A DNA stretch of 64,000 bases, taken from the NCBI GenBank assembly GCA_029256705.1, contig JAQSXK010000007.1, positions 4,606 through 68,605 on the forward strand. Direction: 5' to 3'. How positions within the stretch are numbered: the stretch's first letter is position 1; each line of letters opens with the position of its first letter. Shown here piece after piece: positions 13,141-24,555 of the stretch. The position numbers and the translations under genes are program-made. A model generated the notes under the pieces. It was not told where the DNA came from, did no database searches, and worked only from the letters and a program-made list of their open reading frames with translations. Source of the DNA: Clostridia bacterium. GTDB taxonomy: Bacteria > Bacillota > Clostridia > TANB77 > CAG-465.

Positions 13141-13830
13141 ATGAGATTAAAATATTATACAAGAACATTAAGACAAATGAGTTTAAACAAACCATTTGTC
13201 TTTATTTTTATAACAGTAGTAATTATAATTTCAATTTGTATATATATGTATAGTAAAGCAGCACCAATAATAAATGCTGTATGTGAATCTAATGCTAAAT
13301 ATATTGCCCTAGAAGTAACTAATAAAGCTGTATCTGAAAGTATAGATGATATTAAATATGAAGACTTGGTAATATTAAAACAAGATACAACAGGTAAAAT
13401 AATAGCAATAAACGCTAATGTTATGGAACTGAATAGATTATCTACTAATATATCAACAACTGTATCAGAAAAGTTAGCCAATATAAAGGATAGATATATA
13501 ACAATACCACTTTCCAGCTTATTTAATATGGGACTATTTAGTGGTTATGGACCTAAATTACCACTTAGTATAATTCCTTCTGGAAATGTAACAGCAAAAT
13601 TTAAATCTGAATTTGAAGAAGCTGGTATAAATCAAATAAGACATAGAATATTTATTGAAGTAACTACTAAAGTAAGATTAATAGCGCCGTTTTATACATC
13701 ATCACAAGAGTATATTAATGAGGTTACAGTTGCTGAATATGTTATAGTAGGAGATACACCTAGTACATATTATAACATAACAGGTATAGAAGATTTAAAT
13801 AAAGATACTACAACTAACTTAATAAAATAA
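13141..13830 (+). CDS. yunB: sporulation protein YunB
   Basis: 229 aa with an N-terminal TM and a YunB-like core. Confidence 0.65.
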   Translation: MRLKYYTRTLRQMSLNKPFVFIFITVVIIISICIYMYSKAAPIINAVCESNAKYIALEVTNKAVSESIDDIKYEDLVILKQDTTGKIIAINANVMELNRLSTNISTTVSEKLANIKDRYITIPLSSLFNMGLFSGYGPKLPLSIIPSGNVTAKFKSEFEEAGINQIRHRIFIEVTTKVRLIAPFYTSSQEYINEVTVAEYVIVGDTPSTYYNITGIEDLNKDTTTNLIK

Positions 13831-15060: not shown

Positions 15061-15105
15061 GAAAACACCTTGAAAATATATAGTTTCAAGGTGTTCTTTT
15101 TTTTC
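15061..15105. terminator. bidirectional rho-independent terminator
   Basis: GAAAACACCTTGAAA-loop-TTTCAAGGTGTTCTTTTTTTTC. Confidence 0.65.
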
Positions 15106-15127
15106 TTTACTCACTGGTAAAGTAGTT

Positions 15128-15301
15128 TCATGAAGGTTGTGATGCATTTGTAACATTTTGTTCTTCAATTTGATTTGTTTCATCTTCACTTACAATTTCA
15201 GGTTCCTCATATCCTTGGTAAATTGCACATGACACAACATGACACTCTCCGTTGTAGCAATCTCCTGGTTTACAATTTGGATGATCTTTAATATATGCCA
15301 T
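15128..15301 (-). CDS. small Cys-rich hypothetical protein (58 aa)
   Basis: A GGAGGTG RBS precedes an ATG on the minus strand; the protein 'MAYIKDHPNCKPGDCYNGECHVVSC' is followed by an acidic tail. Confidence 0.4.
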   Translation of the reverse strand: MAYIKDHPNCKPGDCYNGECHVVSCAIYQGYEEPEIVSEDETNQIEEQNVTNASQPS

Positions 15302-15542
15302 ACAAAACACCTCCTTAATTAATACACTTATTAAAGGTAAAATAGAAAATTGAAATATACAGTATAATTATACCATATATTTTATAAAATTCAATATGAT
15401 ATATATAAATATTCCTTATTTTTCCAAATAAATTAATAGTAAGAATTTAGCATTTAAATATACTTAAAAAGAATTACTGTTAATATTTACTTTTATAAAA
15501 ATAAGTTATATAATATTAATAAAAAACAAAAGGAGATTATAA

Positions 15543-16103
15543 ATGGATAACAAAAAAATAGATTTAATCAGTAAAGAAGTATATAAAAGATGTATTAGTG
15601 AAGACAATTTTTTTGGTATAGGAGCATTCTACCATATAGAAGCAGTAGTCAAAAATGCTGTATTTCTTGCAAAAATATATAATGCAGACATAGAAATAGT
15701 TACGCTAGCTGCATGGCTTCATGATATAGCTTCAGTAACAAACTATGAATTATATGAAGATCATCATATACATGGAGTTGAAATTGCAGAAAAAATATTA
15801 TCAGATTTAGAATATGATAATGAAATAATTGAACATGTGAAAAAATGTATATTAAATCATAGAGGAAGCGTATTAAATGAAAAAGAAACAGTAGAAGAAA
15901 AATGCATTGCTGATGCTGATTCAATATCGCATTTTGATAATGTACCATCATTATTTAATCTTGCTTTTGTTGTAAGAAAATATTCAATCAGCGATGGAGA
16001 GAAATTTGTTAAAGATAAACTAATAAGAAGTTACAATAAACTATCTCCTGAAAGTAAAAAAATATATAAGAATAAATATAATAGTGTAATGGAAATATTT
16101 TAG
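15543..16103 (+). CDS. HD-domain phosphohydrolase
   Basis: 'AAWLHDIASV' and 'HHIHGVEIA' give the H...HD...D signature. Confidence 0.75.
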   Translation: MDNKKIDLISKEVYKRCISEDNFFGIGAFYHIEAVVKNAVFLAKIYNADIEIVTLAAWLHDIASVTNYELYEDHHIHGVEIAEKILSDLEYDNEIIEHVKKCILNHRGSVLNEKETVEEKCIADADSISHFDNVPSLFNLAFVVRKYSISDGEKFVKDKLIRSYNKLSPESKKIYKNKYNSVMEIF

Positions 16104-16273
16104 TATGACATTGTATCATATAACATCTTAGTGGATTACAAGTTAAGTTTTTTAATAGTTTTAAATAGTATGTATAACATTTTATATAATTTGACATCAG
16201 GCATATATTTATATGTAAATATATGGTATAATAAGTTTAATAAAAAACTTTATTTTATTGGAGGTGTTAGAAA

Positions 16274-16630
16274 TTGAAAAAAGAAAAAATATATAAAATT
16301 TTACTTGTAATTTCTTTTTTGCCATATGTTTTGTTAATATTAATTTCATTATATCATTCAATTTTTGGGTATGACGTATATACTTTAATATTACCAACAT
16401 ACGTTAAAACAATATATGGTATGGAGGCTTTCATATCAACTTTGTCTTGGAATGCGTTATTATTATGTTTTCTTCCAATTTTACCTATATGTTTGTTATA
16501 TCAAATAATATATTTAACTACCTGTATTATTAACAAAATAAAACATAATAAATATAAACACATTAGTATTTATTTAATTGCAATTTGTGTTGTACTTGTA
16601 GTTTGTGTGCTAATTTTCATTAGACTTTAG
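16274..16630 (+). CDS. hypothetical multi-pass membrane protein
   Basis: 118 aa, three to four hydrophobic helices. Confidence 0.45.
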   Translation: MKKEKIYKILLVISFLPYVLLILISLYHSIFGYDVYTLILPTYVKTIYGMEAFISTLSWNALLLCFLPILPICLLYQIIYLTTCIINKIKHNKYKHISIYLIAICVVLVVCVLIFIRL

Positions 16631-16718
16631 AAAATTGAAAATATTGTTGTTATGTAATTTATAAATAAATTGTGATATAATATAAATTATTAGTAAAAAA
16701 TAAAATTGAGGTGATAGT

Positions 16719-17249
16719 TTGAAAAAATTAAGAAAAATGTTAGGCAAATATAATGATGAACATATGATTCAACTTATGACTCTGATTTCAAGTCAAAGTA
16801 AAGAAACTATTGCTAATTGGTGTATTGATTATGCTGAAAGAGAAATTCTACCAATATACTTAAAGTATTATCCAAATGATTATAGACCTAAAATGGCTTT
16901 AGACGCTTCTCGTGATTGGTTAAAAGGATTAAAGAAACTTCCAGAAGTTAAAAATATAATCTTAAACGAATGTCATCAGGCAGCGCGAGAAGCAGAGAAT
17001 AATCCAGCAGCTCAAGCAGCGGCAAGAACTCTTGGACAAGCGGCAGCTTGTTTTCATACTCCAACACATTCAATGGGATTAGCATTCTATGGTGGAGCAG
17101 CCGTTGCTTATGATAGATTAGGACTTGAAGCTAGTAATGGGGAATATGAAGAGGTAGCCTATCAGGAAGTTATTAAAATGACTAATGAGTTAAAGAAAGT
17201 TGCAGTAGAAAATGAACCAAATAAGGCAAAATTAAATTGGCACTGTTAA
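16719..17249 (+). CDS. hypothetical protein (Ala-rich, locally GC-rich; possibly immunity-type)
   Basis: 176 aa with an 'AQAAARTLGQAAACFHTPTHSMGLAFYGGAAVAY' core. GC is clearly above the flanks; a terminator lies at 17271-17305. Confidence 0.45.
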   Translation: MKKLRKMLGKYNDEHMIQLMTLISSQSKETIANWCIDYAEREILPIYLKYYPNDYRPKMALDASRDWLKGLKKLPEVKNIILNECHQAAREAENNPAAQAAARTLGQAAACFHTPTHSMGLAFYGGAAVAYDRLGLEASNGEYEEVAYQEVIKMTNELKKVAVENEPNKAKLNWHC

Positions 17250-17270
17250 TAAATTATAATAATAAATATA

Positions 17271-17305
17271 AAAACCCAGTAAATTTAATCATTTACTGGG
17301 TTTTT
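17271..17305. terminator. rho-independent terminator
   Basis: AAAACCCAGTAAAT-ttaatc-ATTTACTGGGTTTTT. Confidence 0.65.
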
Positions 17306-17315
17306 ATAAATAATT

Positions 17316-17333
17316 TTTATCTTTTTTGAAAAT
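17316..17333. repeat. degenerate copy of the rpsI 3'-end core (TTATCTTTTTTGAAAATA) - leftmost cassette junction
   Basis: Compare the rpsI end TTATCTCTTTGAAAATTGT at 24162-24180. Confidence 0.35.
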
Positions 17334-17344
17334 AAATGCAATAT

Positions 17345-17373
17345 ATAGTTGACATTATGTAAGATATAGTATA
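17345..17373 (+). promoter_or_regulatory. sigma-A promoter TTGACA-17-TATAAT of cassette 1
   Basis: TTGACAttatgtaagatatagtaTATAAT. Confidence 0.55.
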
Positions 17374-17400
17374 TAATATTATTATCAAATGAGGTGAAAT

Positions 17401-17601
17401 ATGAAGAATAGGAAAATGAAAATAGCACGATTAGAACTAGATATGAAACAAGAAGATCTAGCAACTATTGTAGGAGTTACACGCCAAACAATTGGTATGA
17501 TTGAGTCTGGAAATTATAATCCTACTTTAAATCTTTGTATTGCAATCTGCAAGGCACTTGGAAAAACTTTGGATGAATTATTTTGGGAGGTAGAGAAATG
17601 A
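17401..17601 (+). CDS. XRE-family HTH transcriptional regulator
   Basis: 66 aa with the classic Cro/C1 HTH 'QEDLATIVGVTRQTIGMIESG'. Confidence 0.85.
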   Translation: MKNRKMKIARLELDMKQEDLATIVGVTRQTIGMIESGNYNPTLNLCIAICKALGKTLDELFWEVEK

Positions 17602-18086
17602 AAAAACAAATTATACAAGACGAAAGAGTAGTAGCACAAAAACAAAAAATATTAAGTGAATCATATGTCATTTTAATGATAATTCTTATTATATCTATAT
17701 TTATACAGCAAAATTTATTAAATGCACCTTTTAAGCAATATGCAGTTGAATTTATATGTTTTTTTGGAATATCAATTTACATTTTAATACGTAATTTAAC
17801 ACTTGGAATTGATATGTTTGGGGAGAAGAAAAAGGCAAAAATAATAGCTCTTAGAAATAGTATAATAGCTGGAATTGCTGTAACCGTTGTAACAGGTATT
17901 TCAAACTATATTGAATACGCTGAAAAATATGAAGGAAAATTAATTTTTTTTGTAATTTCACTATTGATTACATTTGTTAGTGCAGTTATTTGCACATTTG
18001 TTGTTTTTGCATTGATAGGTTTTATTAATAATATGAAAATAAATCAACTTGAAAAAAAATTAGATGAAGAAGAAAAAAGGAATTAA
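17598..18086 (+). CDS. membrane protein partner of the XRE regulator
   Basis: Overlaps the XRE stop; three TM helices; GGGAGG RBS. Confidence 0.55.
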   Translation: MKKQIIQDERVVAQKQKILSESYVILMIILIISIFIQQNLLNAPFKQYAVEFICFFGISIYILIRNLTLGIDMFGEKKKAKIIALRNSIIAGIAVTVVTGISNYIEYAEKYEGKLIFFVISLLITFVSAVICTFVVFALIGFINNMKINQLEKKLDEEEKRN

Positions 18087-18124
18087 TGGCTAAATTAGAA
18101 TTTATGAGTCAACTAACAATATAT

Positions 18125-18159
18125 AAAAAAGCTTTAAAACACTGTGTTTGGGGCTTTTT
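18125..18159. terminator. cassette terminator hairpin
   Basis: AAAAAAGCTTTAAAACAC-tg-TGTTTGGGGCTTTTT. Confidence 0.5.
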
Positions 18160-18167
18160 ATATTTTA

Positions 18168-18195
18168 TTGTCTTACATTTTGATAGTTGTAAATT
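18168..18195. repeat. cassette junction repeat (TTGTCTTACATTTTGATAGTTGTAAATT), homologous to the rpsI 3'-end core
   Basis: Aligns with TTGCTTATCTCTTTGATAGTTACAAAT of the other junctions. Confidence 0.45.
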
Positions 18196-18221
18196 AAGTC
18201 TTATCAGTAATTATACATATT

Positions 18222-18256
18222 TTGTATATTATGAGTATGCTAAGTGAGAGTTTGAT
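18222..18256. repeat. GTATATTA-containing junction motif (degenerate copy)
   Basis: TTTGTATATTATGAGTATGCTAAGTGAGAGTTTGATAG. Confidence 0.4.
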
Positions 18257-18284
18257 AGTGTCTTGTACTAAATAGTCCTTGAAA

Positions 18285-18313
18285 TATTATGTAAAATATG
18301 ATATAATACATAT
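18285..18313 (+). promoter_or_regulatory. sigma-A promoter TTGAAA-17-TATAAT of cassette 2
   Basis: TTGAAAtattatgtaaaatatgaTATAAT. Confidence 0.55.
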
Positions 18314-18343
18314 AGTTAAATTTATATTAATGGAGGGATGAAT

Positions 18344-18712
18344 ATGTCATTGACAATTTATCGAGTGTGTCAACCGGTGATTATCCGGGAAGAGAATATT
18401 ATTGATGTAAAATCTGTAACTTTGGCTTGTAATTTTTCATACTCATTGAGTTATTCGGCTGTAGAATTTGTCAAAAAAGCAGGTGAAAATGCAGTTGCCT
18501 ATGTGGAAGAAAGCTGCGGTGCTAAATTACTATTGCTATGCAATGCGGAGACGGGTGAAGTTTTTATACCAGATGATTATCCTGAAGTAATAAGGTTTGA
18601 AATAAAGCAACAGTTTATAGCATATTTGCTATCTAACATTCAATTTAAAGACATAAAATTCATGAAATTCAAACGAGATAGACTGATCGAACAAAAAGCT
18701 AACAAACTTTGA
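18344..18712 (+). CDS. hypothetical protein
   Basis: 122-aa ORF with a GGAGGG RBS. Confidence 0.45.
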   Translation: MSLTIYRVCQPVIIREENIIDVKSVTLACNFSYSLSYSAVEFVKKAGENAVAYVEESCGAKLLLLCNAETGEVFIPDDYPEVIRFEIKQQFIAYLLSNIQFKDIKFMKFKRDRLIEQKANKL

Positions 18713-18733
18713 AAAAATATTTAGGAGGTTTTT

Positions 18734-19183
18734 ATGTCTAATAAAGAAAAACGGATTTTTAAAAAGGGTGAGGTATTATATGTAATTGATTGTTGGGGCA
18801 CTACATGCGGCATGCATGCTTTTGAGGCTTCAGCTAGAATTATTCATATTGATGAAGAAATAGGAAGTTTCGATGCAGTTCTATATGGTGATACATATCA
18901 GAGATATAATGTTAAAGATTATGGTCGTTTGATTTTTGATGATGAATCAGAAGCGCTAAAAGCTGCATATAAATTACCAAAGCCTACTTCACTTGTATAT
19001 CAACTAATAGGTAATAGAGTTTTTAAAAAAATTGTTGTAGGAGTACGAAATGAAAACATTAATAACTTCACAGATCTAGTTGTTCATTTAAATAAAGGGA
19101 AAAGCGTGCCTATAGGAAGAATAGGCATTGAACTTTTTCTTGATGAATCATCTGCGAGAGAAAAAATAAGAAAAATTGATTAA
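18734..19183 (+). CDS. hypothetical protein
   Basis: 149-aa ORF with an AGGAGG RBS. Confidence 0.5.
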   Translation: MSNKEKRIFKKGEVLYVIDCWGTTCGMHAFEASARIIHIDEEIGSFDAVLYGDTYQRYNVKDYGRLIFDDESEALKAAYKLPKPTSLVYQLIGNRVFKKIVVGVRNENINNFTDLVVHLNKGKSVPIGRIGIELFLDESSAREKIRKID

Positions 19184-19251
19184 TTTTCTTGGTTTTTCTA
19201 AAAGAACTTATATATTTGAGTAGAGTTTTTCAAAAACTTCAACTGTAAAAA

Positions 19252-19285
19252 GAAAAAGCACCAAACCATTGAGGTTGGTGCTTTT
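19252..19285. terminator. cassette terminator hairpin (CCAAACCATTG-loop family)
   Basis: AAAAAGCACCAAACC-attga-GGTTGGTGCTTTTT. Confidence 0.6.
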
Positions 19286-19298
19286 TCTATATATTTTA

Positions 19299-19322
19299 TT
19301 ATCTCTTTGATAGTCACAAACG
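19299..19322. repeat. rpsI 3'-end core copy TTATCTCTTTGATAGTCACAAACG
   Basis: 12/12 identity to TTATCTCTTTGA at the rpsI stop region. Confidence 0.6.
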
Positions 19323-19348
19323 TAGTAATATCAGTAGTTATATAGATT

Positions 19349-19379
19349 TTTGCATATTATATGTATATTACGTAGAGAG
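19349..19379. repeat. GTATATTA quasi-palindromic motif TTTGCATATTATATGTATATTACGTAGAGAG
   Basis: Conserved at 6 junctions. Confidence 0.55.
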
Positions 19380-19479
19380 TTTTATAGAGTTAGAGTAATC
19401 ATATTTTTTATATATTAAATAGAAAATGTAAAAAACTATTTACATTAAATTCATTTTATGGTATTATAAAAATGTATAC

Positions 19480-19508
19480 TTCAAATTTATTTAATATTAT
19501 GATATAAT
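19480..19508 (+). promoter_or_regulatory. sigma-A promoter TTCAAA-17-TATAAT plus the conserved leader AATTAAACAAATGATAATTTGTATAGGAGG
   Basis: Spacing is 17 bp; the leader/RBS is shared with cassettes 4-6. Confidence 0.55.
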
Positions 19509-19549
19509 CAATTAAACAAATGATAATTTGTATAGGAGGTAATCGAAAT

Positions 19550-20011
19550 ATGGCAAAGGCAGAATGGTATGATGGAAAAGAAGGAAAGGCTGAACATTTA
19601 GTATATCTAAATAGTAAGGCAAAAGAATTAGAAAAATTAGAATGTAAAGAAAAAACAATGATTATTAGAGGTGCAGCAGGCAAAAAATGTCCTTTAGGTG
19701 GTCGTGCTAAATTAAATGATAATATATATTTTGTGGAAACTGGTGGAGATATGACAGTTACTCATAAAGGTATTATTTCAAATATAATAGAAAGTGAAAA
19801 AATGACTCCAGAGGAATCTGTTAATTTCATAAAAAAATATGAAAAACAGTTAAATCTATCAAAAGATCAATATGATAGATGGGCAGGTAAAAAGTTTCTT
19901 GCCGTTTATGAAATATCTAATTTAGAAAAGATTATTCCTTTTAAATATAACAGAGAGAACAATATGGATGATTGGATTATTACAGATGATATTAACAAAA
20001 TAAAAATATAA
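19550..20011 (+). CDS. hypothetical protein (cassette 3 cargo)
   Basis: 153 aa starting 'MAKAEWYDGKEGK...'; AGGAGG RBS. Confidence 0.5.
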   Translation: MAKAEWYDGKEGKAEHLVYLNSKAKELEKLECKEKTMIIRGAAGKKCPLGGRAKLNDNIYFVETGGDMTVTHKGIISNIIESEKMTPEESVNFIKKYEKQLNLSKDQYDRWAGKKFLAVYEISNLEKIIPFKYNRENNMDDWIITDDINKIKI

Positions 20012-20065
20012 TAAATTACAATTTATGAGTTAATAAAAAATATATATAAAATCAAACTATCAAAT

Positions 20066-20102
20066 ATAAAAAAGCCCCAAACCATTGCGGTTGAGGCTTT
20101 TG
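20066..20102. terminator. cassette terminator hairpin
   Basis: AAAAAAGCCCCAAACC-attgc-GGTTGAGGCTTTTG. Confidence 0.6.
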
Positions 20103-20116
20103 TTGTATGTTTTTGC

Positions 20117-20140
20117 TTATCTCTTTGGTAATTGCAAATA
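20117..20140. repeat. rpsI 3'-end core copy TTATCTCTTTGGTAATTGCAAATA
   Basis: 11/12 match to the core; the flanking TTGC also matches the rpsI context. Confidence 0.55.
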
Positions 20141-20165
20141 TATTATTATCAATGTTTATTGGCAT

Positions 20166-20198
20166 CTTTGTATATTATACGTATATTACGTAGAAAAT
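20166..20198. repeat. GTATATTA motif CTTTGTATATTATACGTATATTACGTAGAAAAT
   Basis: Tandem GTATATTA x2. Confidence 0.55.
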
Positions 20199-20244
20199 TT
20201 TATGGGACTTTGCAGATACCTCTTTTTCATAATAAAGTGTATAC

Positions 20245-20273
20245 TTGAAATTTATATGAAATTATGATATACT
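20245..20273 (+). promoter_or_regulatory. sigma-A promoter TTGAAA-17-TATACT of cassette 4
   Basis: TTGAAAtttatatgaaattatgaTATACT. Confidence 0.55.
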
Positions 20274-20309
20274 TAGTTAATTAAATGGTAATTCATGGAG
20301 GGAAAGTAA

Positions 20310-20786
20310 ATGTTTAAAATGAAATATATTATTTTAGGAATAGTAATTGTTATAATTGGAATATTTATTTGTGTATTTCTTTATGATAAAAAAGGTCTAA
20401 TTTTAGAAAATGAATCTAAATTGATTTACGAAATAAGTGAATGTCCAAACTCTAAGGTTGTTGCAAACGAAAATGAAAAAGTATATTATTATATTAAAAT
20501 TTATCAAGAAAAGGATAATACAATTATAGTAAAGGCAACATCTAATTCAGAATTAATGAAAGGCTTGCAATATACAATTAAATATGATAAAGTAATTACA
20601 CAAGATAATATAGAAATAAAATGGTTAACTTTAATGGGACAAAATAATGCAAGTGAGAATAATCAGGCAGCAATCGCAGATATAATTATATCAGATAATA
20701 AAGAAGTAGTTAGCGAAAGAAAGATAAATTTTGTATCAAAAATTATAGAGATAATAGTTGATAGAATTAATAAAAATAGCAAGTAA
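20310..20786 (+). CDS. membrane-anchored hypothetical protein (cassette 4 cargo)
   Basis: 158 aa with an N-terminal TM; GGAGGG RBS. Confidence 0.5.
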   Translation: MFKMKYIILGIVIVIIGIFICVFLYDKKGLILENESKLIYEISECPNSKVVANENEKVYYYIKIYQEKDNTIIVKATSNSELMKGLQYTIKYDKVITQDNIEIKWLTLMGQNNASENNQAAIADIIISDNKEVVSERKINFVSKIIEIIVDRINKNSK

Positions 20787-20815
20787 ACTATAATTTATGA
20801 GTTAGTCAATAATAT

Positions 20816-20850
20816 AAAAAGCACTAAATATAATATTTGGTGCTTTTAAG
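20816..20850. terminator. cassette terminator hairpin 1
   Basis: AAAAGCACTAAATAT-aat-ATTTGGTGCTTTT. Confidence 0.5.
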
Positions 20851-20890
20851 ATATGTTGATGTTATTAATAAGTATGAAGAAACATATAAT

Positions 20891-20927
20891 AAAAAACCCG
20901 AAAATCGTTGTGATTTCTGGGTTTTTA
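20891..20927. terminator. cassette terminator hairpin 2
   Basis: AAAAAACCCGAAAATC...GATTTCTGGGTTTTT. Confidence 0.5.
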
Positions 20928-20938
20928 AGCTTTTCTTC

Positions 20939-20962
20939 TCTATCTCTTTGATAGTTACAAAT
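20939..20962. repeat. rpsI 3'-end core copy TCTATCTCTTTGATAGTTACAAAT
   Basis: 11/12 match to the core. Confidence 0.55.
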
Positions 20963-20988
20963 CCATTATTATCAGTAAATGTATAGAT

Positions 20989-21027
20989 TTTTGTATATTA
21001 TGTGCATATTGTGTAGAGAGCTTTATA
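20989..21027. repeat. GTATATTA motif TTTGTATATTATGTGCATATTGTGTAGAGAGCTTTATAG
   Basis: Conserved junction motif. Confidence 0.5.
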
Positions 21028-21098
21028 GCTTCTAAAAAATTAATAAATATAATTATTTACTTTAGATTATGTTTATTTATTATTTAGTAAAATTAGCT

Positions 21099-21126
21099 TT
21101 GAAAATCAGTTTGAACATGATATAAT
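21099..21126 (+). promoter_or_regulatory. sigma-A promoter TTGAAA-16-TATAAT of cassette 5
   Basis: TTGAAAatcagtttgaacatgaTATAAT; followed by the leader TAGTAATTTGTGAGTAGAGGAAAG. Confidence 0.45.
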
Positions 21127-21185
21127 TATACTGATTAAACAAATTTAATAAATAGTAATTTGTGAGTAGAGGAAAGTGAAATTAT

Positions 21186-21734
21186 ATGATGCGATATGTA
21201 GCTTTATTAAGGGGAATAAATATTAGTGGTAAAAATAAAATAGCGATGTTAGAATTAAAAAAAGAATTTGAAAAATTAGATTTTTTTGAAGTTCTTACTT
21301 ATATCAATAGTGGAAATATTATTTTTTCTAGTAATATAGAGGATACAGACATTATAGAAAATAATATTAAATTAATGATACAAAATAAATTTAATTTAAA
21401 TATTCCTGTATTTATAATAACAATAGAAAAATTAGCAATGATATTAAAAAATGCACCAGATTGGTGGGGAAATGATAACAAAGAAATATATGACAATATT
21501 ATTTTTATAATTCCGCCTACAACATATGAAGAAGTATTCTTAGAAATTGGCGAGGCTAAACAAGAGTATGAAAAAATAAGTAACTATAAAAATGTAATTT
21601 ATTGGTCTTTTGACTTGAAATCTTATTCTAAAACAAATTGGATTAAGACAGCAAATTCAAAAATAAATAATAAAGTTACAATAAGAACAGCAAATACTAT
21701 GAAAAAATTATTTGAACTTAGTAAAACAGTGTAA
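21186..21734 (+). CDS. DUF1697 family protein
   Basis: The N-terminus 'MMRYVALLRGINISGKNKIAMLELK' is the hallmark DUF1697 signature (RGINVGG). Confidence 0.7.
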   Translation: MMRYVALLRGINISGKNKIAMLELKKEFEKLDFFEVLTYINSGNIIFSSNIEDTDIIENNIKLMIQNKFNLNIPVFIITIEKLAMILKNAPDWWGNDNKEIYDNIIFIIPPTTYEEVFLEIGEAKQEYEKISNYKNVIYWSFDLKSYSKTNWIKTANSKINNKVTIRTANTMKKLFELSKTV

Positions 21735-21792
21735 AAGACAAATTAAAATTTAATTGATTAGTTATAAAAATAGTAATTTGTGGAGGTGTAAG

Positions 21793-22140
21793 ATGTTTAA
21801 TGAAATATGTATATACGAAGTAAAATTAAATAAACAAGATGAAGTTGAAGAACTTATGAGAGAAGTTGCTGATTTTTATAAATTCCAACCGGGTGTTATT
21901 GAAGTTAAGTATATAAAAAGAACTCATAGGCAAAAAGACTTTAATACAGTTAAAGAAGGTCAAGTACCGGTTGAATTAACTAGATATGTAGATAAAGTTA
22001 CTTATGTGTTATATTGGGTATTAGAAAGTAAAGAAGCACACGCAGCAATATATCCAATTGCTCTAGAAAAGTTTTATAAAAGATGGACTAGATGTTTAAC
22101 TACAATGCCTAGAATTATATTAGGCGAAAATATTGTTTAA
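21793..22140 (+). CDS. hypothetical protein (possibly ABM/Dabb-like small alpha+beta protein)
   Basis: 115 aa; the GGAGGTG RBS and leader resemble the cassette leader. Confidence 0.4.
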   Translation: MFNEICIYEVKLNKQDEVEELMREVADFYKFQPGVIEVKYIKRTHRQKDFNTVKEGQVPVELTRYVDKVTYVLYWVLESKEAHAAIYPIALEKFYKRWTRCLTTMPRIILGENIV

Positions 22141-22157
22141 GAAAGGAAGTCAGAGTT

Positions 22158-22481
22158 ATGCATGAAATATTATTAACATTATTAATAGGATTTATTGTAG
22201 GAATTATAGATATAGCACCAATGATTAAAATGAAACTTGATAGATACGCTTTATCATCTGCATTTACTTTTTATTTTATTATGCCTTTTATTATTTATAA
22301 TTTAGATTTTTTAAATACTTTATGGTGGTTAAAAGGGGAACTTATAACCCTCATATTATCTATTCCTACAACAATTCTTATAGCAAAAACAGATAAGAAA
22401 GGTTGTATCCCAGTTGTTATTATGTCTATTGTACTTGGAACTATAATAGGTATAGCTGGACATTTATTAGGGATTATGTAA
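22158..22481 (+). CDS. hypothetical membrane protein
   Basis: 107 aa with four hydrophobic segments. Confidence 0.5.
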   Translation: MHEILLTLLIGFIVGIIDIAPMIKMKLDRYALSSAFTFYFIMPFIIYNLDFLNTLWWLKGELITLILSIPTTILIAKTDKKGCIPVVIMSIVLGTIIGIAGHLLGIM

Positions 22482-22517
22482 AAGATAAATTACAATTTAT
22501 AAGTTAATTAATAATAT

Positions 22518-22551
22518 AAAAAAGCTCCAAACCATTGAGTTTGGGGCTTTT
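22518..22551. terminator. cassette terminator hairpin
   Basis: AAAAAAGCTCCAAAC-cattgag-TTTGGGGCTTTT. Confidence 0.6.
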
Positions 22552-22562
22552 GAACATCTTTT

Positions 22563-22593
22563 TGCTTATCTCTTTGAAAATTGTAAATAAAGT
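22563..22593. repeat. rpsI 3'-end copy TTGCTTATCTCTTTGAAAATTGTAAATAAAG (22/23 identity to 24158-24180)
   Basis: TTATCTCTTTGAAAATTGT is identical to the rpsI terminal 19-mer. Confidence 0.7.
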
Positions 22594-22616
22594 ATTATCA
22601 GTGTTTACTATTATAT

Positions 22617-22645
22617 TTGTATATTATATGTATATTACGTATAGT
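22617..22645. repeat. GTATATTA motif TTTGTATATTATATGTATATTACGTATAG
   Basis: Conserved junction motif. Confidence 0.55.
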
Positions 22646-22689
22646 AATTTAGAAAATTTTTAAAGTAGTTCTTGTTAAAAAATGTATAC

Positions 22690-22718
22690 TTGAGATTTAT
22701 ATCATATTGTGATATACT
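22690..22718 (+). promoter_or_regulatory. sigma-A promoter TTGAGA-17-TATACT of cassette 6
   Basis: Followed by the leader AATTAAACATATAGTGATTTGTAAAGGAGAG. Confidence 0.5.
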
Positions 22719-22765
22719 TAATTAAACATATAGTGATTTGTAAAGGAGAGATTGTTTTGGATAGA

Positions 22766-23320
22766 ATGAGATTTGAATTATATTGGAGTTATTATTTGTC
22801 AATTGAAAAAATGTTAAGTAATACAAGTCAATATGTATCACCTTCAAGTGAAAATAAAAAAACATATTCTGACGAATTTACAAAAATAATATTATTATCA
22901 TGTTCAGAAATAGACTCTATATTAAAATTAATTTGCAAATGTAAAGGAATAGAATATGATCAAAGAAAATATAATATGAATATTTATTCCGAAGTTTTAT
23001 TGCAATTTAAAGATATTAAAAAAATTTCTTACGCTTCAAATTCAAATACCTCGATGAATGAAAATAGTCTAAGTGTTACTCCATTTGAAAAATTAAATAG
23101 CAATACAAAATACGGGGGATTAAGTTGGTGGGAAGATTATCAATCGCTAAAACATAATAGATTAGATAATGCAGAAAAAGGAAACCTATTCAATGCGGTA
23201 TCTTCAATTTCAGCACATTACATTTTATTAAGATTTTTAATAGAATTTTTAGATGAGTATGCTGGAAAAAGCTATGTAATAGATCATAATCTTTCTGAAT
23301 ATTTAATACCATGTGTATAA
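22766..23320 (+). CDS. hypothetical protein (upstream partner of the HEPN-like gene)
   Basis: About 185 aa; AAAGGAGAG RBS. The start is the ATG at 22766 or the TTG at 22757. Confidence 0.45.
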   Translation: MRFELYWSYYLSIEKMLSNTSQYVSPSSENKKTYSDEFTKIILLSCSEIDSILKLICKCKGIEYDQRKYNMNIYSEVLLQFKDIKKISYASNSNTSMNENSLSVTPFEKLNSNTKYGGLSWWEDYQSLKHNRLDNAEKGNLFNAVSSISAHYILLRFLIEFLDEYAGKSYVIDHNLSEYLIPCV

Positions 23321-23382
23321 TGATAATATAATACTGGTTACAATTCTTAGGATATATAAACATATTAGGAGGGAGATATTTA

Positions 23383-23916
23383 ATGGATACAGTATTAGAG
23401 TATATGATTAATAAAGAATGGGAAAAGGATTATAAAGCCAAAAGAAAAATTTATTTAATAAATTTAGCTGAAAAAAGTAAAAGAGAAAAAGATATATCAA
23501 ATAAAATAGGAAGTATGTTAATATATAATCAAGTTATTGAACAAATATTAAAAGAGGTAATTATATGTAGTGTAGGTTATATAAAAGCAGAAATATGGCC
23601 AAGTTCTATACAGTTAGATATAAATTTAGATAGGGCAACTTTTGGTGTGTTGATAGAATATTTTAAACAATATGCTGTAAAAGAATACAATAGAGATATA
23701 ATATTAGAATATTTACAAAAATTAAATATAGAAAGAAATAAAGTTGTACACAAACTTTTTGATATTGAGGATATAAGAAAATTAAGTAAACAACTAAATG
23801 AATATGGTGATTTAGCATATGAATTAATAATACTTTTAAACGAATATTATGATCAAATTTGCTGGCGATTATATGACCTAAATGATAGAGTTGATTTCGA
23901 GTCTTTAAGTGAATAA
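23383..23916 (+). CDS. HEPN-like protein (Rx4H motif 'RNKVVH')
   Basis: 177 aa, all-alpha character, with 'ERNKVVHKLF' matching the HEPN Rx4-6H motif; AGGAGGGAG RBS. Confidence 0.45.
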   Translation: MDTVLEYMINKEWEKDYKAKRKIYLINLAEKSKREKDISNKIGSMLIYNQVIEQILKEVIICSVGYIKAEIWPSSIQLDINLDRATFGVLIEYFKQYAVKEYNRDIILEYLQKLNIERNKVVHKLFDIEDIRKLSKQLNEYGDLAYELIILLNEYYDQICWRLYDLNDRVDFESLSE

Positions 23917-23970
23917 AAGGAATTAAACATGGCAGTGGATATATGAAATAAATAACTATAATTATAAGTG

Positions 23971-24013
23971 TATTTGTATATTGCTTGTATATTATGTGTA
24001 TATTGTATAAAAA
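23971..24013. repeat. GTATATTA motif (three tandem GTATATT units) immediately left of the rpsI terminator
   Basis: TATTTGTATATTGCTTGTATATTATGTGTATATTGTATAAAAAC. Confidence 0.5.
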
Positions 24014-24107
24014 CTTTAGTAATATTATAATTGATTAAATGTACTTAAATTAACATTTATGATTAAATTGAAATTATATGAATAGCTATAAGTAATATAT
24101 AATAAAA

Positions 24108-24147
24108 AACCTTAAAAGTATTGATACTTCTAAGGTTTTTAATGCTT
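24108..24147 (-). terminator. rpsI rho-independent terminator
   Basis: AAAACCTTAGAAGTATCAATACTTTTAAGGTTTTTT read on the minus strand. Confidence 0.7.
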
Positions 24148-24162
24148 CTTGAAAAAGTTTGA

Positions 24163-24555
24163 TTATCTCTTTGAAAATTGTGGTGCTTTTCTTGCTTTCT
24201 TAAGACCATATTTTCTTCTTTCTTTAACTCTTGAATCTCTAGTTAGTAAACCATTTCTTTTTAGAACTGTACGAGTATCTAAGTCAGTTGTTGAAAGTGC
24301 TTTTGCAATACCATGAGCAATAGCTCCTGCTTGACCTGCAAATCCACCACCATGAACTGTAGCCTCAACATCATATTTTTCCATTAAGTTTGCTACGTTA
24401 AAAGGTTTTAATATTATTGCTTTTAATGTATCTAGGTTAAATACTTCGTTAATGTCTTTTTTATTTATAGTTATTTTACCTGTACCTGGTATTATGTTTA
24501 CTCTTGCAATAGATGATTTTCTTTTACCTGTTGCATAAATATATTCTTTTGCCAT
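24163..24555 (-). CDS. rpsI: 30S ribosomal protein S9
   Basis: 'ATGKRKSSIARV...GGGFAGQAGAIAHGIAKAL...RDSRVKERRKYGLKKARKAPQFSKR' is near-identical to the S9 consensus. Confidence 0.95.
   Translation of the reverse strand: MAKEYIYATGKRKSSIARVNIIPGTGKITINKKDINEVFNLDTLKAIILKPFNVANLMEKYDVEATVHGGGFAGQAGAIAHGIAKALSTTDLDTRTVLKRNGLLTRDSRVKERRKYGLKKARKAPQFSKR

Follow-up and report, generated by a model that had tools for sequence, protein, structure and literature searches.

The 64-kb stretch of contig JAQSXK010000007.1 (assembly GCA_029256705.1) considered here, hereafter the window, is an AT-rich, Clostridium-like chromosome segment in which the genes rplM and rpsI are located on the minus strand, and to the left of these lies a run of plus-strand genes split by a repeated junction module. 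A TTTG-started motif of this module, GTATATTA, probably represents the arm-type sites of a lambda-like (heterobivalent) tyrosine integrase, predicted to be bound by the N-terminal domain of that enzyme, with the junctions being hybrid attachment (att) sites. This reading draws on the anatomy of the junctions and their conserved spacing, on the co-occurrence of the repeat with one integrase family and on the crossover block present in a related phage; from these we infer that the integrase binds the motif and that the cassettes between the junctions are mobile at the present day.

Junction modules at the 3′ end of rpsI

On the plus strand, a junction comprises, in this order, the stop codon of a cassette, a box that is conserved (TAAATTACAATTTATGAGTTAAT), a hairpin serving as bidirectional terminator, the core, a 38-nt spacer and the motif, after which there is a variable stretch and, in several cassettes, a conserved promoter and 5′ untranslated region (5′UTR) module preceding the cargo. 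The core has the form TTATCTCTTTGA(T/A)A(G/A)TT, its first 12 nt being identical to the stop codon and last three codons of rpsI. This target gene (24163..24555, minus strand) encodes the 130-aa ribosomal protein S9 (PF00380 in gene tables), and its chromosomal core on the attB (bacterial attachment site) side, TTATCTCTTTGAAAATTG (24163..24180), comprises the stop codon and the last five codons, of which the first 12 nt are common to every junction. Internal copies of the core are found at 22566..22588 (TTATCTCTTTGAAAATTGTAAAT), 20940..20962, 20117..20139 and 19299..19321, the last belonging to the junction singled out in a preliminary description of this DNA, as well as in a decayed form (CTTACATTTTGATAGTTGTAAAT) at 18172..18194.

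The motif is present at all six places where the preliminary description had reported it, with TTTG-started copies at 18221, 19349, 20167, 20990 and 22616 and a three-unit copy at 23973-24008. A search of the window with GTATATTATAYGTATATTA, allowing up to three mismatches, gave nine matches where 0.86 were expected, a number reached by none of 100 shuffles. Six of the nine are inside the array, and the three outside it (1533, 9357 and 54527) are on the other strand with two to three mismatches. The exact sequence TGTATATTA occurs nine times in the 64 kb, with seven of these occurrences between 18223 and 23986. The motif is thus a genuine feature of the window and not a product of chance.

The motif is built from an 11-nt unit, TGYATATTAYN, present two or three times in direct orientation, the units being 7-9/11 identical to one another. 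The copy at 19349..19378 reads TTTG CATATTATATG TATATTACGTAGAGA, and equivalent pairs, all on the plus strand, are located at 18221..18250, where the second unit has decayed (7/11), 20167..20196, 20990..21019 and 22616..22645. Across modules the number of units ranges from one to three and changes in exact 11-nt steps. Dyad symmetry within the motif is weak (45-78%), as is ordinary for AT-rich DNA. The earlier view of it as a quasi-palindrome with dyad character was consequently rejected, since the units are direct repeats with an 11-nt period and the only strong inverted repeat of the junction is the terminator. This hairpin lies at 19246..19293, left of the core at 19299, with equivalents at 18125-18160, 20070-20101, 20892-20926, 22520-22551 and 24105-24140.

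From the start of the core to the TTTG of the motif there are 50 nt at four of the five window junctions and 49 nt at the fifth (core at 18172), a distance which the preliminary description had stated too loosely as always 25-40 bp from the core. The same spacing is seen in other genomes. When 185,579 species genomes and a metagenome collection were scanned with the pattern, copies of the junction type turned up only in a few assemblies of uncultured Clostridium/Clostridia, and these junctions fall into two groups, group 1 having the core of the window. In 15 of 19 group-1 modules the distance is 50 nt and in three more it is 48-51 nt, while the remaining one, a decayed copy (L001:3015), was put at 64 nt by a loose core match. 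Group 2, with an RpsI 62-65% identical, has a different terminator, core and spacer in the same layout, and its motif also begins 50 nt from the core start. By contrast, the distances from the end of the motif to the -35 hexamer at the five window junctions are 28, 101, 48, 79 and 44 nt. As the distance to the core is fixed and that to the -35 hexamer ranges from about 30 to 100 nt, the motif appears to be tied to the core and not to the promoter.

Column conservation over 23 distinct modules from both groups was 0.86 for core positions 1-12, 0.85 for the units, 0.73 for the spacer and 0.6 for the flanks. In having at least two repeats that are distinct from the core and stand at a fixed distance from it, the core itself sharing a 12-nt identity block with rpsI, the motif resembles arm-type sites. 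In a comparison of 153 module pairs (Spearman), modules with similar spacers also tended to have similar units (0.64) and similar cores (0.51), whereas spacer similarity showed no correlation with the right-hand (0.01) or left-hand (-0.08) cargo. With spacer, units and core correlated and the cargo unlinked, the block of terminator, core, spacer and units appears to evolve as one, homogenised within genomes; judging from these sequence comparisons, this may be read as gene conversion or homologous exchange between conserved scaffolds of approximately 150 nt.

The pairs at 18221-22645 are best read as the P′-arm sites of hybrid att junctions, each composed of a terminator, the 12-nt rpsI-identical core, the 38-nt spacer and two 11-nt arm units. 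The three tandem units at 23973..24008 (plus strand) are placed differently, on the other side of the terminator (24105-24140), as the preliminary description had said, and 158-190 nt left of the rpsI stop codon and core, and they are read as the P-arm sites of the rpsI-proximal and youngest element (22566..24180, plus strand). The unusual placement of this copy is explained by its being the other arm of the last element. The latter is a mini-element without an integrase, composed in order of a core, the P′ pair (22616..22645, at its left end), a promoter, two genes (203 and 177 aa), the P triple, a box like that following the other cassettes (family D6), the terminator and the core.

In the mechanism proposed here, strand exchange would take place in the rpsI-identical core and not in the motif, the arm units serving only to anchor additional integrase domains and set their orientation during bending of the DNA. 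Integration at the core would restore both the stop codon of rpsI and its terminator and displace older insertions towards the sporulation gene yunB at the other end of the locus, thereby giving rise to the stack. The enzyme would be supplied in trans by a phage or integrative element of the family described below, or else the older junctions would be inactive. Core-to-core excision of 22566-24180 would yield a circle with three units, 187 nt, core, 50 nt and two units, a layout within the range of the phage attachment (attP) sites of that family.

Some other features of the junctions may be mentioned. In both groups, many junctions have a unit-like sequence, TTTTGTATATTCTGT, between the T-run of the terminator and the core, to the left of the latter by 12-15 nt (for example in L013, L059, L063 and L067; group 2 form TATTTGTATATATAAC), and an inverted unit-like sequence, AATAATATAAAAA, lies left of the terminator (window 22511-22522 and 20063-20072). 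Both could be extra integrase sites or simply the A/T tracts of the terminator. The box TAAATTACAATTTATGAGTTAAT stands right after cassette stop codons, 80-105 nt left of the core. Boxes of the D6 family are located on the plus strand at 22486..22522 (TAAATTACAATTTATRAGTTAAT), 18091-18127, 20012-20048, 20784-20820 and 24046-24082, and relatives possess a second variant (GCTAACTATCATATAG). The box may be a site for an accessory factor, either a recombination directionality factor (RDF) or a host factor, in the P arm. A candidate older, decayed core (TTATCTTTTTTGAAAATAAAT, 17317..17337), picked out by eye and of low confidence, follows a terminator at 17267-17308 and has no arm units. An Rfam search of the whole window returned only one tRNA (59788) and nothing at the junctions.

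The locus in related strains and a tyrosine integrase family

The variable locus is bounded at its far end by a yunB-like gene (13141..13830, plus strand; PF09560 listed for its orthologues, synteny checked). The number of genes between yunB and rpsI is one in L067, two in L062, four in L069, six in L063, approximately nine in L183 and approximately 20 in the window. In a gut relative the site is empty, with a yunB-rpsI spacer of 85 nt that contains one terminator and no motif, which indicates that the motif arrives with the inserted DNA. The exact RpsI protein of the window is also found in sister strain L001 (metagenome-assembled genome (MAG) GCA_023460515.1), which matches window positions 15061-19388 at 90-92% identity and then carries different cassettes, the segment from the last motif to rpsI also being different. 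The two become homologous again precisely at window 24162/3, where the rpsI core has its left edge. Two further contigs with the same RpsI, L003 and L004, end within 0-2 nt of the rpsI stop codon, as would be expected if co-existing strains diverge there.

The boundary is at an equivalent position in both groups of junctions. In group 1 the junctions match rpsI up to the end of TTATCTCTTTGA. In group 2 they do so up to the end of CTATCTTTTTG, rpsI there ending with CTATCTTTTTG followed by AGAATTG and the junctions reading CTATCTTTTTG followed by TTAAAAAC. With regard to the P arm, L001 has a decayed unit at the position equivalent to the window triple, while an internal junction of L052 has a complete set, consisting of three units (491-523), 88 nt, the core and, 50 nt from the core start, two units.

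The cassettes themselves appear in different contexts, with the same cargo being found in different surroundings among strains and species. Strains with 92-95% identity have different cargo next to rpsI, and one cargo is shared at 97% identity by genomes that match at 91% in the rpsI region. Where the window and L032 have a cargo in common, homology breaks at the 5′UTR and just before the terminator. A second motif contig in MAG CAYJKK (L012) proved to be the other end of the same array and not a second site. One 3.3-kb contig binned as 'Bacteroidales bacterium' (L005, JAQUBO010000313.1) contains two typical group-1 junctions and is probably mis-binned Clostridial DNA. In one relative (L176-L182, RpsI 95%), an IS3-family transposase with rve domains lies approximately 200 nt beyond rpsI; every contig stops at this point, and the array of that population was not assembled.

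Matches to the motif pattern were mostly single copies without junction context (in 6 of the 15 genome, 36 of the 42 metagenome and, as L073, 1 of the 4 viral stretches) and were left aside as having no relation to the arrays. Five matches outside arrays adjoin a tyrosine integrase gene, namely those of L070, L071 and L072 (viral), L020 and L054. In viral contig L071, which ends 158 nt after the integrase gene (int), the sequence TTTTGTATATTACTTGTATATTACGTA directly follows the integrase stop codon and is nearly identical to junction copies of L013 and L001. The integrases of L070, L072, L020 and L054 are only 34% identical to that of L071; these have three units right after the int stop codon and a pair approximately 190 nt further downstream. 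The same unit layout beside an integrase was found in L090, L100, L109, L150, L169 and L173. A further sequence next to the L071 motif, TTTTCAAAG, resembles the end of rpsI but was treated as a chance likeness, its orientation and distance being wrong.

A survey of 80 relatives of the integrase from IMG/VR showed this arrangement to be a feature of the family, almost every lineage having three to four repeats of 11-nt period located 3-60 nt after int and a second cluster of two to three repeats approximately 190-230 nt further on. Some relatives belong to small integrated elements lying next to the 3′ end of a gene, either ilvC or a tRNA-like one, and have a unit pair right after int. Copies of the motif repeat, with the same 11-nt period, thus adjoin one tyrosine integrase family in an attP layout, in agreement with the suggestion that a recombinase is involved. 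The sequence of the arm unit is specific to the lineage (TTACATAT, TTGTGCCA, TTGGCAAC, TGTAAGCA and others) and changes together with the N-terminal 50 or so residues of the integrase. Units of the TGTATATT type, carried by L071, L070, L090, L100, L109, L150, L169, L173 and L204, accompany integrase N-termini of the type GSI[VI]xLGKxRRxP[YF]A[VI]R[VI]T...YRQKY, and in the integrases of L071, L070, L072, L020 and L054 the N-terminal approximately 50 residues are far more alike than the rest of the sequence. The loci of the survey (L081-L160) offer a ready data set for reading the recognition code of the arm sites.

The position of the crossover can be seen in a phage of this family, as integrase P0126 was found in two states, in a phage-form contig with int, attP and lysis genes (L204) and in an integrated form where int is followed by the junction and then by a host gene on the opposite strand (L203). 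The two contigs agree throughout the first 121 nt after int and diverge from there on. The P-arm units lie at +5 to +26 after int and the P′ units start 35 nt beyond the point of divergence, so that the stretch of identity comes to an end with one arm cluster on either side. For the arrays, the distance from the end of the match between junctions and rpsI to the start of the first unit is 41-42 nt, compared with these 35 nt in P0126. The preliminary description had proposed the motif, rather than the rpsI core, as the true crossover site, a proposal with which these data disagree. That the crossover is in the core is argued by the short identity with rpsI (only 12-17 nt at the stop codon), by its ending at the same boundary in two lineages and by the divergence of the window and L001 at the core edge.

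The integrases of the family have the domains PF00589 and PF14659. An AlphaFold model of a family member has a beta-beta-beta-alpha domain at residues 9-69 (predicted local distance difference test (pLDDT) score 83-86), followed by a flexible linker and then the core-binding and catalytic domains, and its closest folds are Tn1549 Int and full-length lambda Int, with 15-20% identity to solved structures. Heterobivalent integrases bind arm-type sites through their N-terminal domain. The domain order of the model is that of such integrases, which supports the motif being of the arm type. The earlier alternative, that the repeats are recombinase binding sites of arm or core type, can therefore be narrowed to the arm type, given their occurrence beside integrase genes and in an attP layout.

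Alternative explanations and comparison with known systems

Several observations weigh against the interpretation of the junctions as att sites with arm-type repeats, the foremost being the missing enzyme. No cognate integrase was found in the 64-kb window (Pfam on 31 open reading frames (ORFs); tblastn with the L071 integrase), in approximately 12 related arrays or at rpsI in the contexts reached via RpsI variants and integrase relatives. Neither was any phage or element with the rpsI core and an arm pair identified in IMG/VR, where the core pattern matched only the coding region of one phage family, without the motif, and two composite patterns of core and motif gave nothing or chance matches. 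It follows from the lack of an integrase in any array examined that the enzyme acts in trans or that the sites are relics. P-arm units 100-200 nt left of the core are missing at most internal junctions, which may accordingly be unable to excise. The absence of a link between spacer or unit similarity and the cargo on either side, described above, is also unfavourable. Finally, some breakpoints fall at the units. Window-L001 homology breaks after unit 1 (window 19361), L052 and L063:7775 have core, spacer and units in common and part from each other immediately beyond unit 2, and the arrays of L059 and L067 begin with the motif, directly after a flanking gene or terminator and with no recognisable core. 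These breakpoints and core-less starts are attributed to gene conversion and decay, though there is a slight chance that a second recombination activity at the motif produced them.

The same breakpoints would be accounted for if the motif were itself a core-type crossover site, with cassettes recombining motif-to-motif and the rpsI-like sequence being a passenger copy. Such a reading, to which the variation in unit number from one to three also lends itself, was initially adopted for the breakpoints and was dropped after the segment-correlation analysis and the group-2 and L203/L204 comparisons; it is now considered improbable. At rpsI the strains diverge at the left edge of the core and not at the motif, the segment from the last motif to rpsI differs between the window and L001, and the junctions share only 12-17 nt with rpsI instead of the longer stretch expected of a duplicated chromosomal end. 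Moreover, the attP units of the family occur in two clusters 100-290 nt apart, between which the L203/L204 identity block ends, and a module evolving as a block unlinked to its cargo is sufficient to explain the breakpoints. A more serious rival is that the arm sites are fossils without present function, the array being composed of decayed prophage or element ends that change by homologous recombination only. The lack of an integrase in every array examined, the missing P-arm units, the decay of older copies (18221, and the core at 17317) and the unlinked cargo expected from gene conversion are all compatible with this. Nevertheless, we regard it as rather unlikely, as no other columns of the junction are conserved as well as the units and core in two lineages whose RpsI proteins are 62-65% identical, with spacing exact to the nucleotide, and the rpsI-proximal elements of the window, L001 and L052 retain both arms. 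This conservation, along with the rpsI-proximal cargo differing between close strains and the cargo that is more alike than the rpsI regions of its genomes, points to activity that is at least recent.

A regulatory function was also weighed, in which the motif would be an operator co-regulating all cassette promoters, bound by an OmpR-type response regulator or by the XRE-type helix-turn-helix (HTH) protein encoded at 17401-17601. The motif is always upstream of the cassette promoter, a direct repeat of 11-nt period would be a fitting target for winged-helix regulators such as the OmpR-type response regulators, and the HTH_3 gene of the array is 100% conserved between the window and L001. However, the variable distance to the -35 hexamer is at odds with the fixed position that would be expected of an operator, while the distance to the core is constant; in addition, there is no gene downstream of the 23973 copy, and in unrelated phages the same repeat comes after the stop codon of an integrase gene, a place with no cassette promoter. 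The operator reading, put forward in the preliminary description as a repressor acting on the cassette promoters, is thus even less probable than a crossover in the motif. That description had also likened the motif to a Xer/dif site, which would be used by the host XerC/D as in the integrative mobile elements exploiting Xer (IMEX). An array without its own recombinase and an AT-rich sequence with TATA-type stretches would suit such a site, but a dif site, about 28 nt long, has its two 11-nt binding arms in inverted orientation on either side of a 6-8 nt centre, whereas the units here are direct. The motif is also missing from the empty site, and rpsI has six copies within 6 kb in place of a single one near the terminus. 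As the repeat is furthermore found with a family of phage-type integrases possessing an additional N-terminal domain, a dif-like role is the least credible of these explanations.

Set beside known systems, the sites are most readily compared with those of lambda, whose attP has the arm-type sites P1, P2 and P′1-P′3 and a heterobivalent Int, and of Tn916/Tn1549, with their Int arm repeats. Common to all of these are short direct repeats distinct from the core, on both arms and at set distances from a short core shared with attB, an integrase with an extra N-terminal beta-sheet/helix domain, crossover in the core and, as target, the 3′ end of a gene that is rebuilt by the element. The differences are in the unit sequence, the strict 11-nt tandem spacing and the integrase family, which is uncharacterised (only PF00589/PF14659 matches), and also in that the window sites lack an integrase gene and recur at each junction within a stack of cassettes 0.8-4 kb in size. 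Tandem stacks at one chromosomal site, some members of which lack a recombinase, are likewise known for IMEX elements (at dif) and for staphylococcal cassette chromosome (SCC) elements (at the 3′ end of rlmH). Unlike the present sites, however, IMEX elements rely on XerCD and dif-like inverted sites, and the SCC elements on serine recombinases and short repeats that have no arm sites.

The 3′ end of rpsI is itself a documented target of tyrosine integrases in streptococci (PMC5357655), with tandem accretion there of ICEs (integrative and conjugative elements), IMEs (integrative and mobilizable elements) and decayed elements similar to cis-mobilizable elements (CIME-like) (PMC5357655, PMC5090054). 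The arrays described here have in common with these accretions the target end, the association with tyrosine integrases, the bounding by repeated att sites and the presence of decayed members without recombination genes. By the published definition (PMC5357655), and as known from sequence alone, the window elements are CIME-like, being bounded by att repeats at the 3′ end of rpsI and having no recombination or transfer genes. The streptococcal elements, however, average approximately 10 kb, usually have their own integrase and mobilisation genes and are stacked two or three deep (PMC5357655, PMC5090054), whereas here there are at least five units of 0.8-1.6 kb with cargo only and a shared portable promoter/5′UTR and terminator, in a host clade of uncultured Clostridia and with a different integrase family. 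The arrays also resemble those of integron cassettes in their small cargo units of the same orientation, each ending in a conserved recombination module, in the strong variation of cargo between strains and in the position of the newest unit next to a fixed chromosomal site. Unlike integrons, they have no intI or attI adjoining the array (no intI was found in the window ORF scans) and no attC-type imperfect palindrome or fold, the terminator being the sole strong hairpin; the cassettes have their own promoters and the sites are of the lambda-type core-plus-arm form.

Cassette cargo and significance

Cassettes with unrelated cargo share a conserved promoter and 5′UTR module of 70 nt (D7; GTATACTTGAAA..N17..TATAMT..AATTAAACAAATGATAATTTGTAGGAGG), with an identity of 75-83%. 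In the window it is located on the plus strand at 19468..19538 (hexamers 19480-19508), with further copies at 20233-20303 (hexamers 20245-20273) and 22678-22748 (hexamers 22690-22718), and it is also present in L001, L013 and L052. From its sequence it looks like a portable expression module.

PADLOC and Pfam gave no name for most of the cassette proteins. The rpsI-proximal cassette of the window encodes a 177-aa protein (23383-23916) with an ERNKVVH (Rx4H, HEPN-like) motif and a weak match to Csm6 (E = 0.005), beside a neighbouring gene at 22709-23320, and a 194-aa cargo protein found in L001 (15495-16079), L013 and L052 has the sequence LRNYLVH. On the strength of such motifs, several cassettes may encode HEPN-type toxins or defence genes. 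The rpsI-proximal cassette of L001 (10668-14564 in locus coordinates) contains a four-gene cyclic oligonucleotide-based antiphage signalling system (CBASS) with a Cap15-like effector, CD-NTase, E1/E2 and JAB proteins, and is bounded by three arm units on one side and by a decayed unit and the core on the other. Window positions 17401-18086 represent one cassette with the HTH_3 (XRE-type, 66 aa) gene and a gene for a DUF6773 membrane protein; the HTH protein is 100% identical in L001, with its neighbours at 90-97%. The cargo also includes an Imm5-like immunity protein (window 16719-17249), an Arr-type rifampin ADP-ribosyltransferase domain (L183, 11084-11512) and a metallo-beta-lactamase-fold protein with a weak match to the anti-Pycsar protein Apyc1 (L063, 13155-13778).

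It may tentatively be proposed, as a possibility still short of an even chance, that the yunB-rpsI interval is an integron-like gene-capture platform built on lambda-type att sites. Its cassettes would be 'att-only' satellites, mobilised in trans and moving between species, which are small and self-expressing, have core and arm sites without an integrase, and carry cargo such as CBASS, HEPN-like and immunity proteins and Arr. If the arm-site reading is right, a short DNA word would mark the recognition code of an uncharacterised but widespread integrase family, and the arrays would represent a new way of stacking accessory and anti-phage genes behind an essential gene, as well as a directly testable system for trans-mobilised 'att-only' cassettes. 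The combination of the core, 38 nt and the arm pair would provide a practical marker for finding such arrays in metagenomes.

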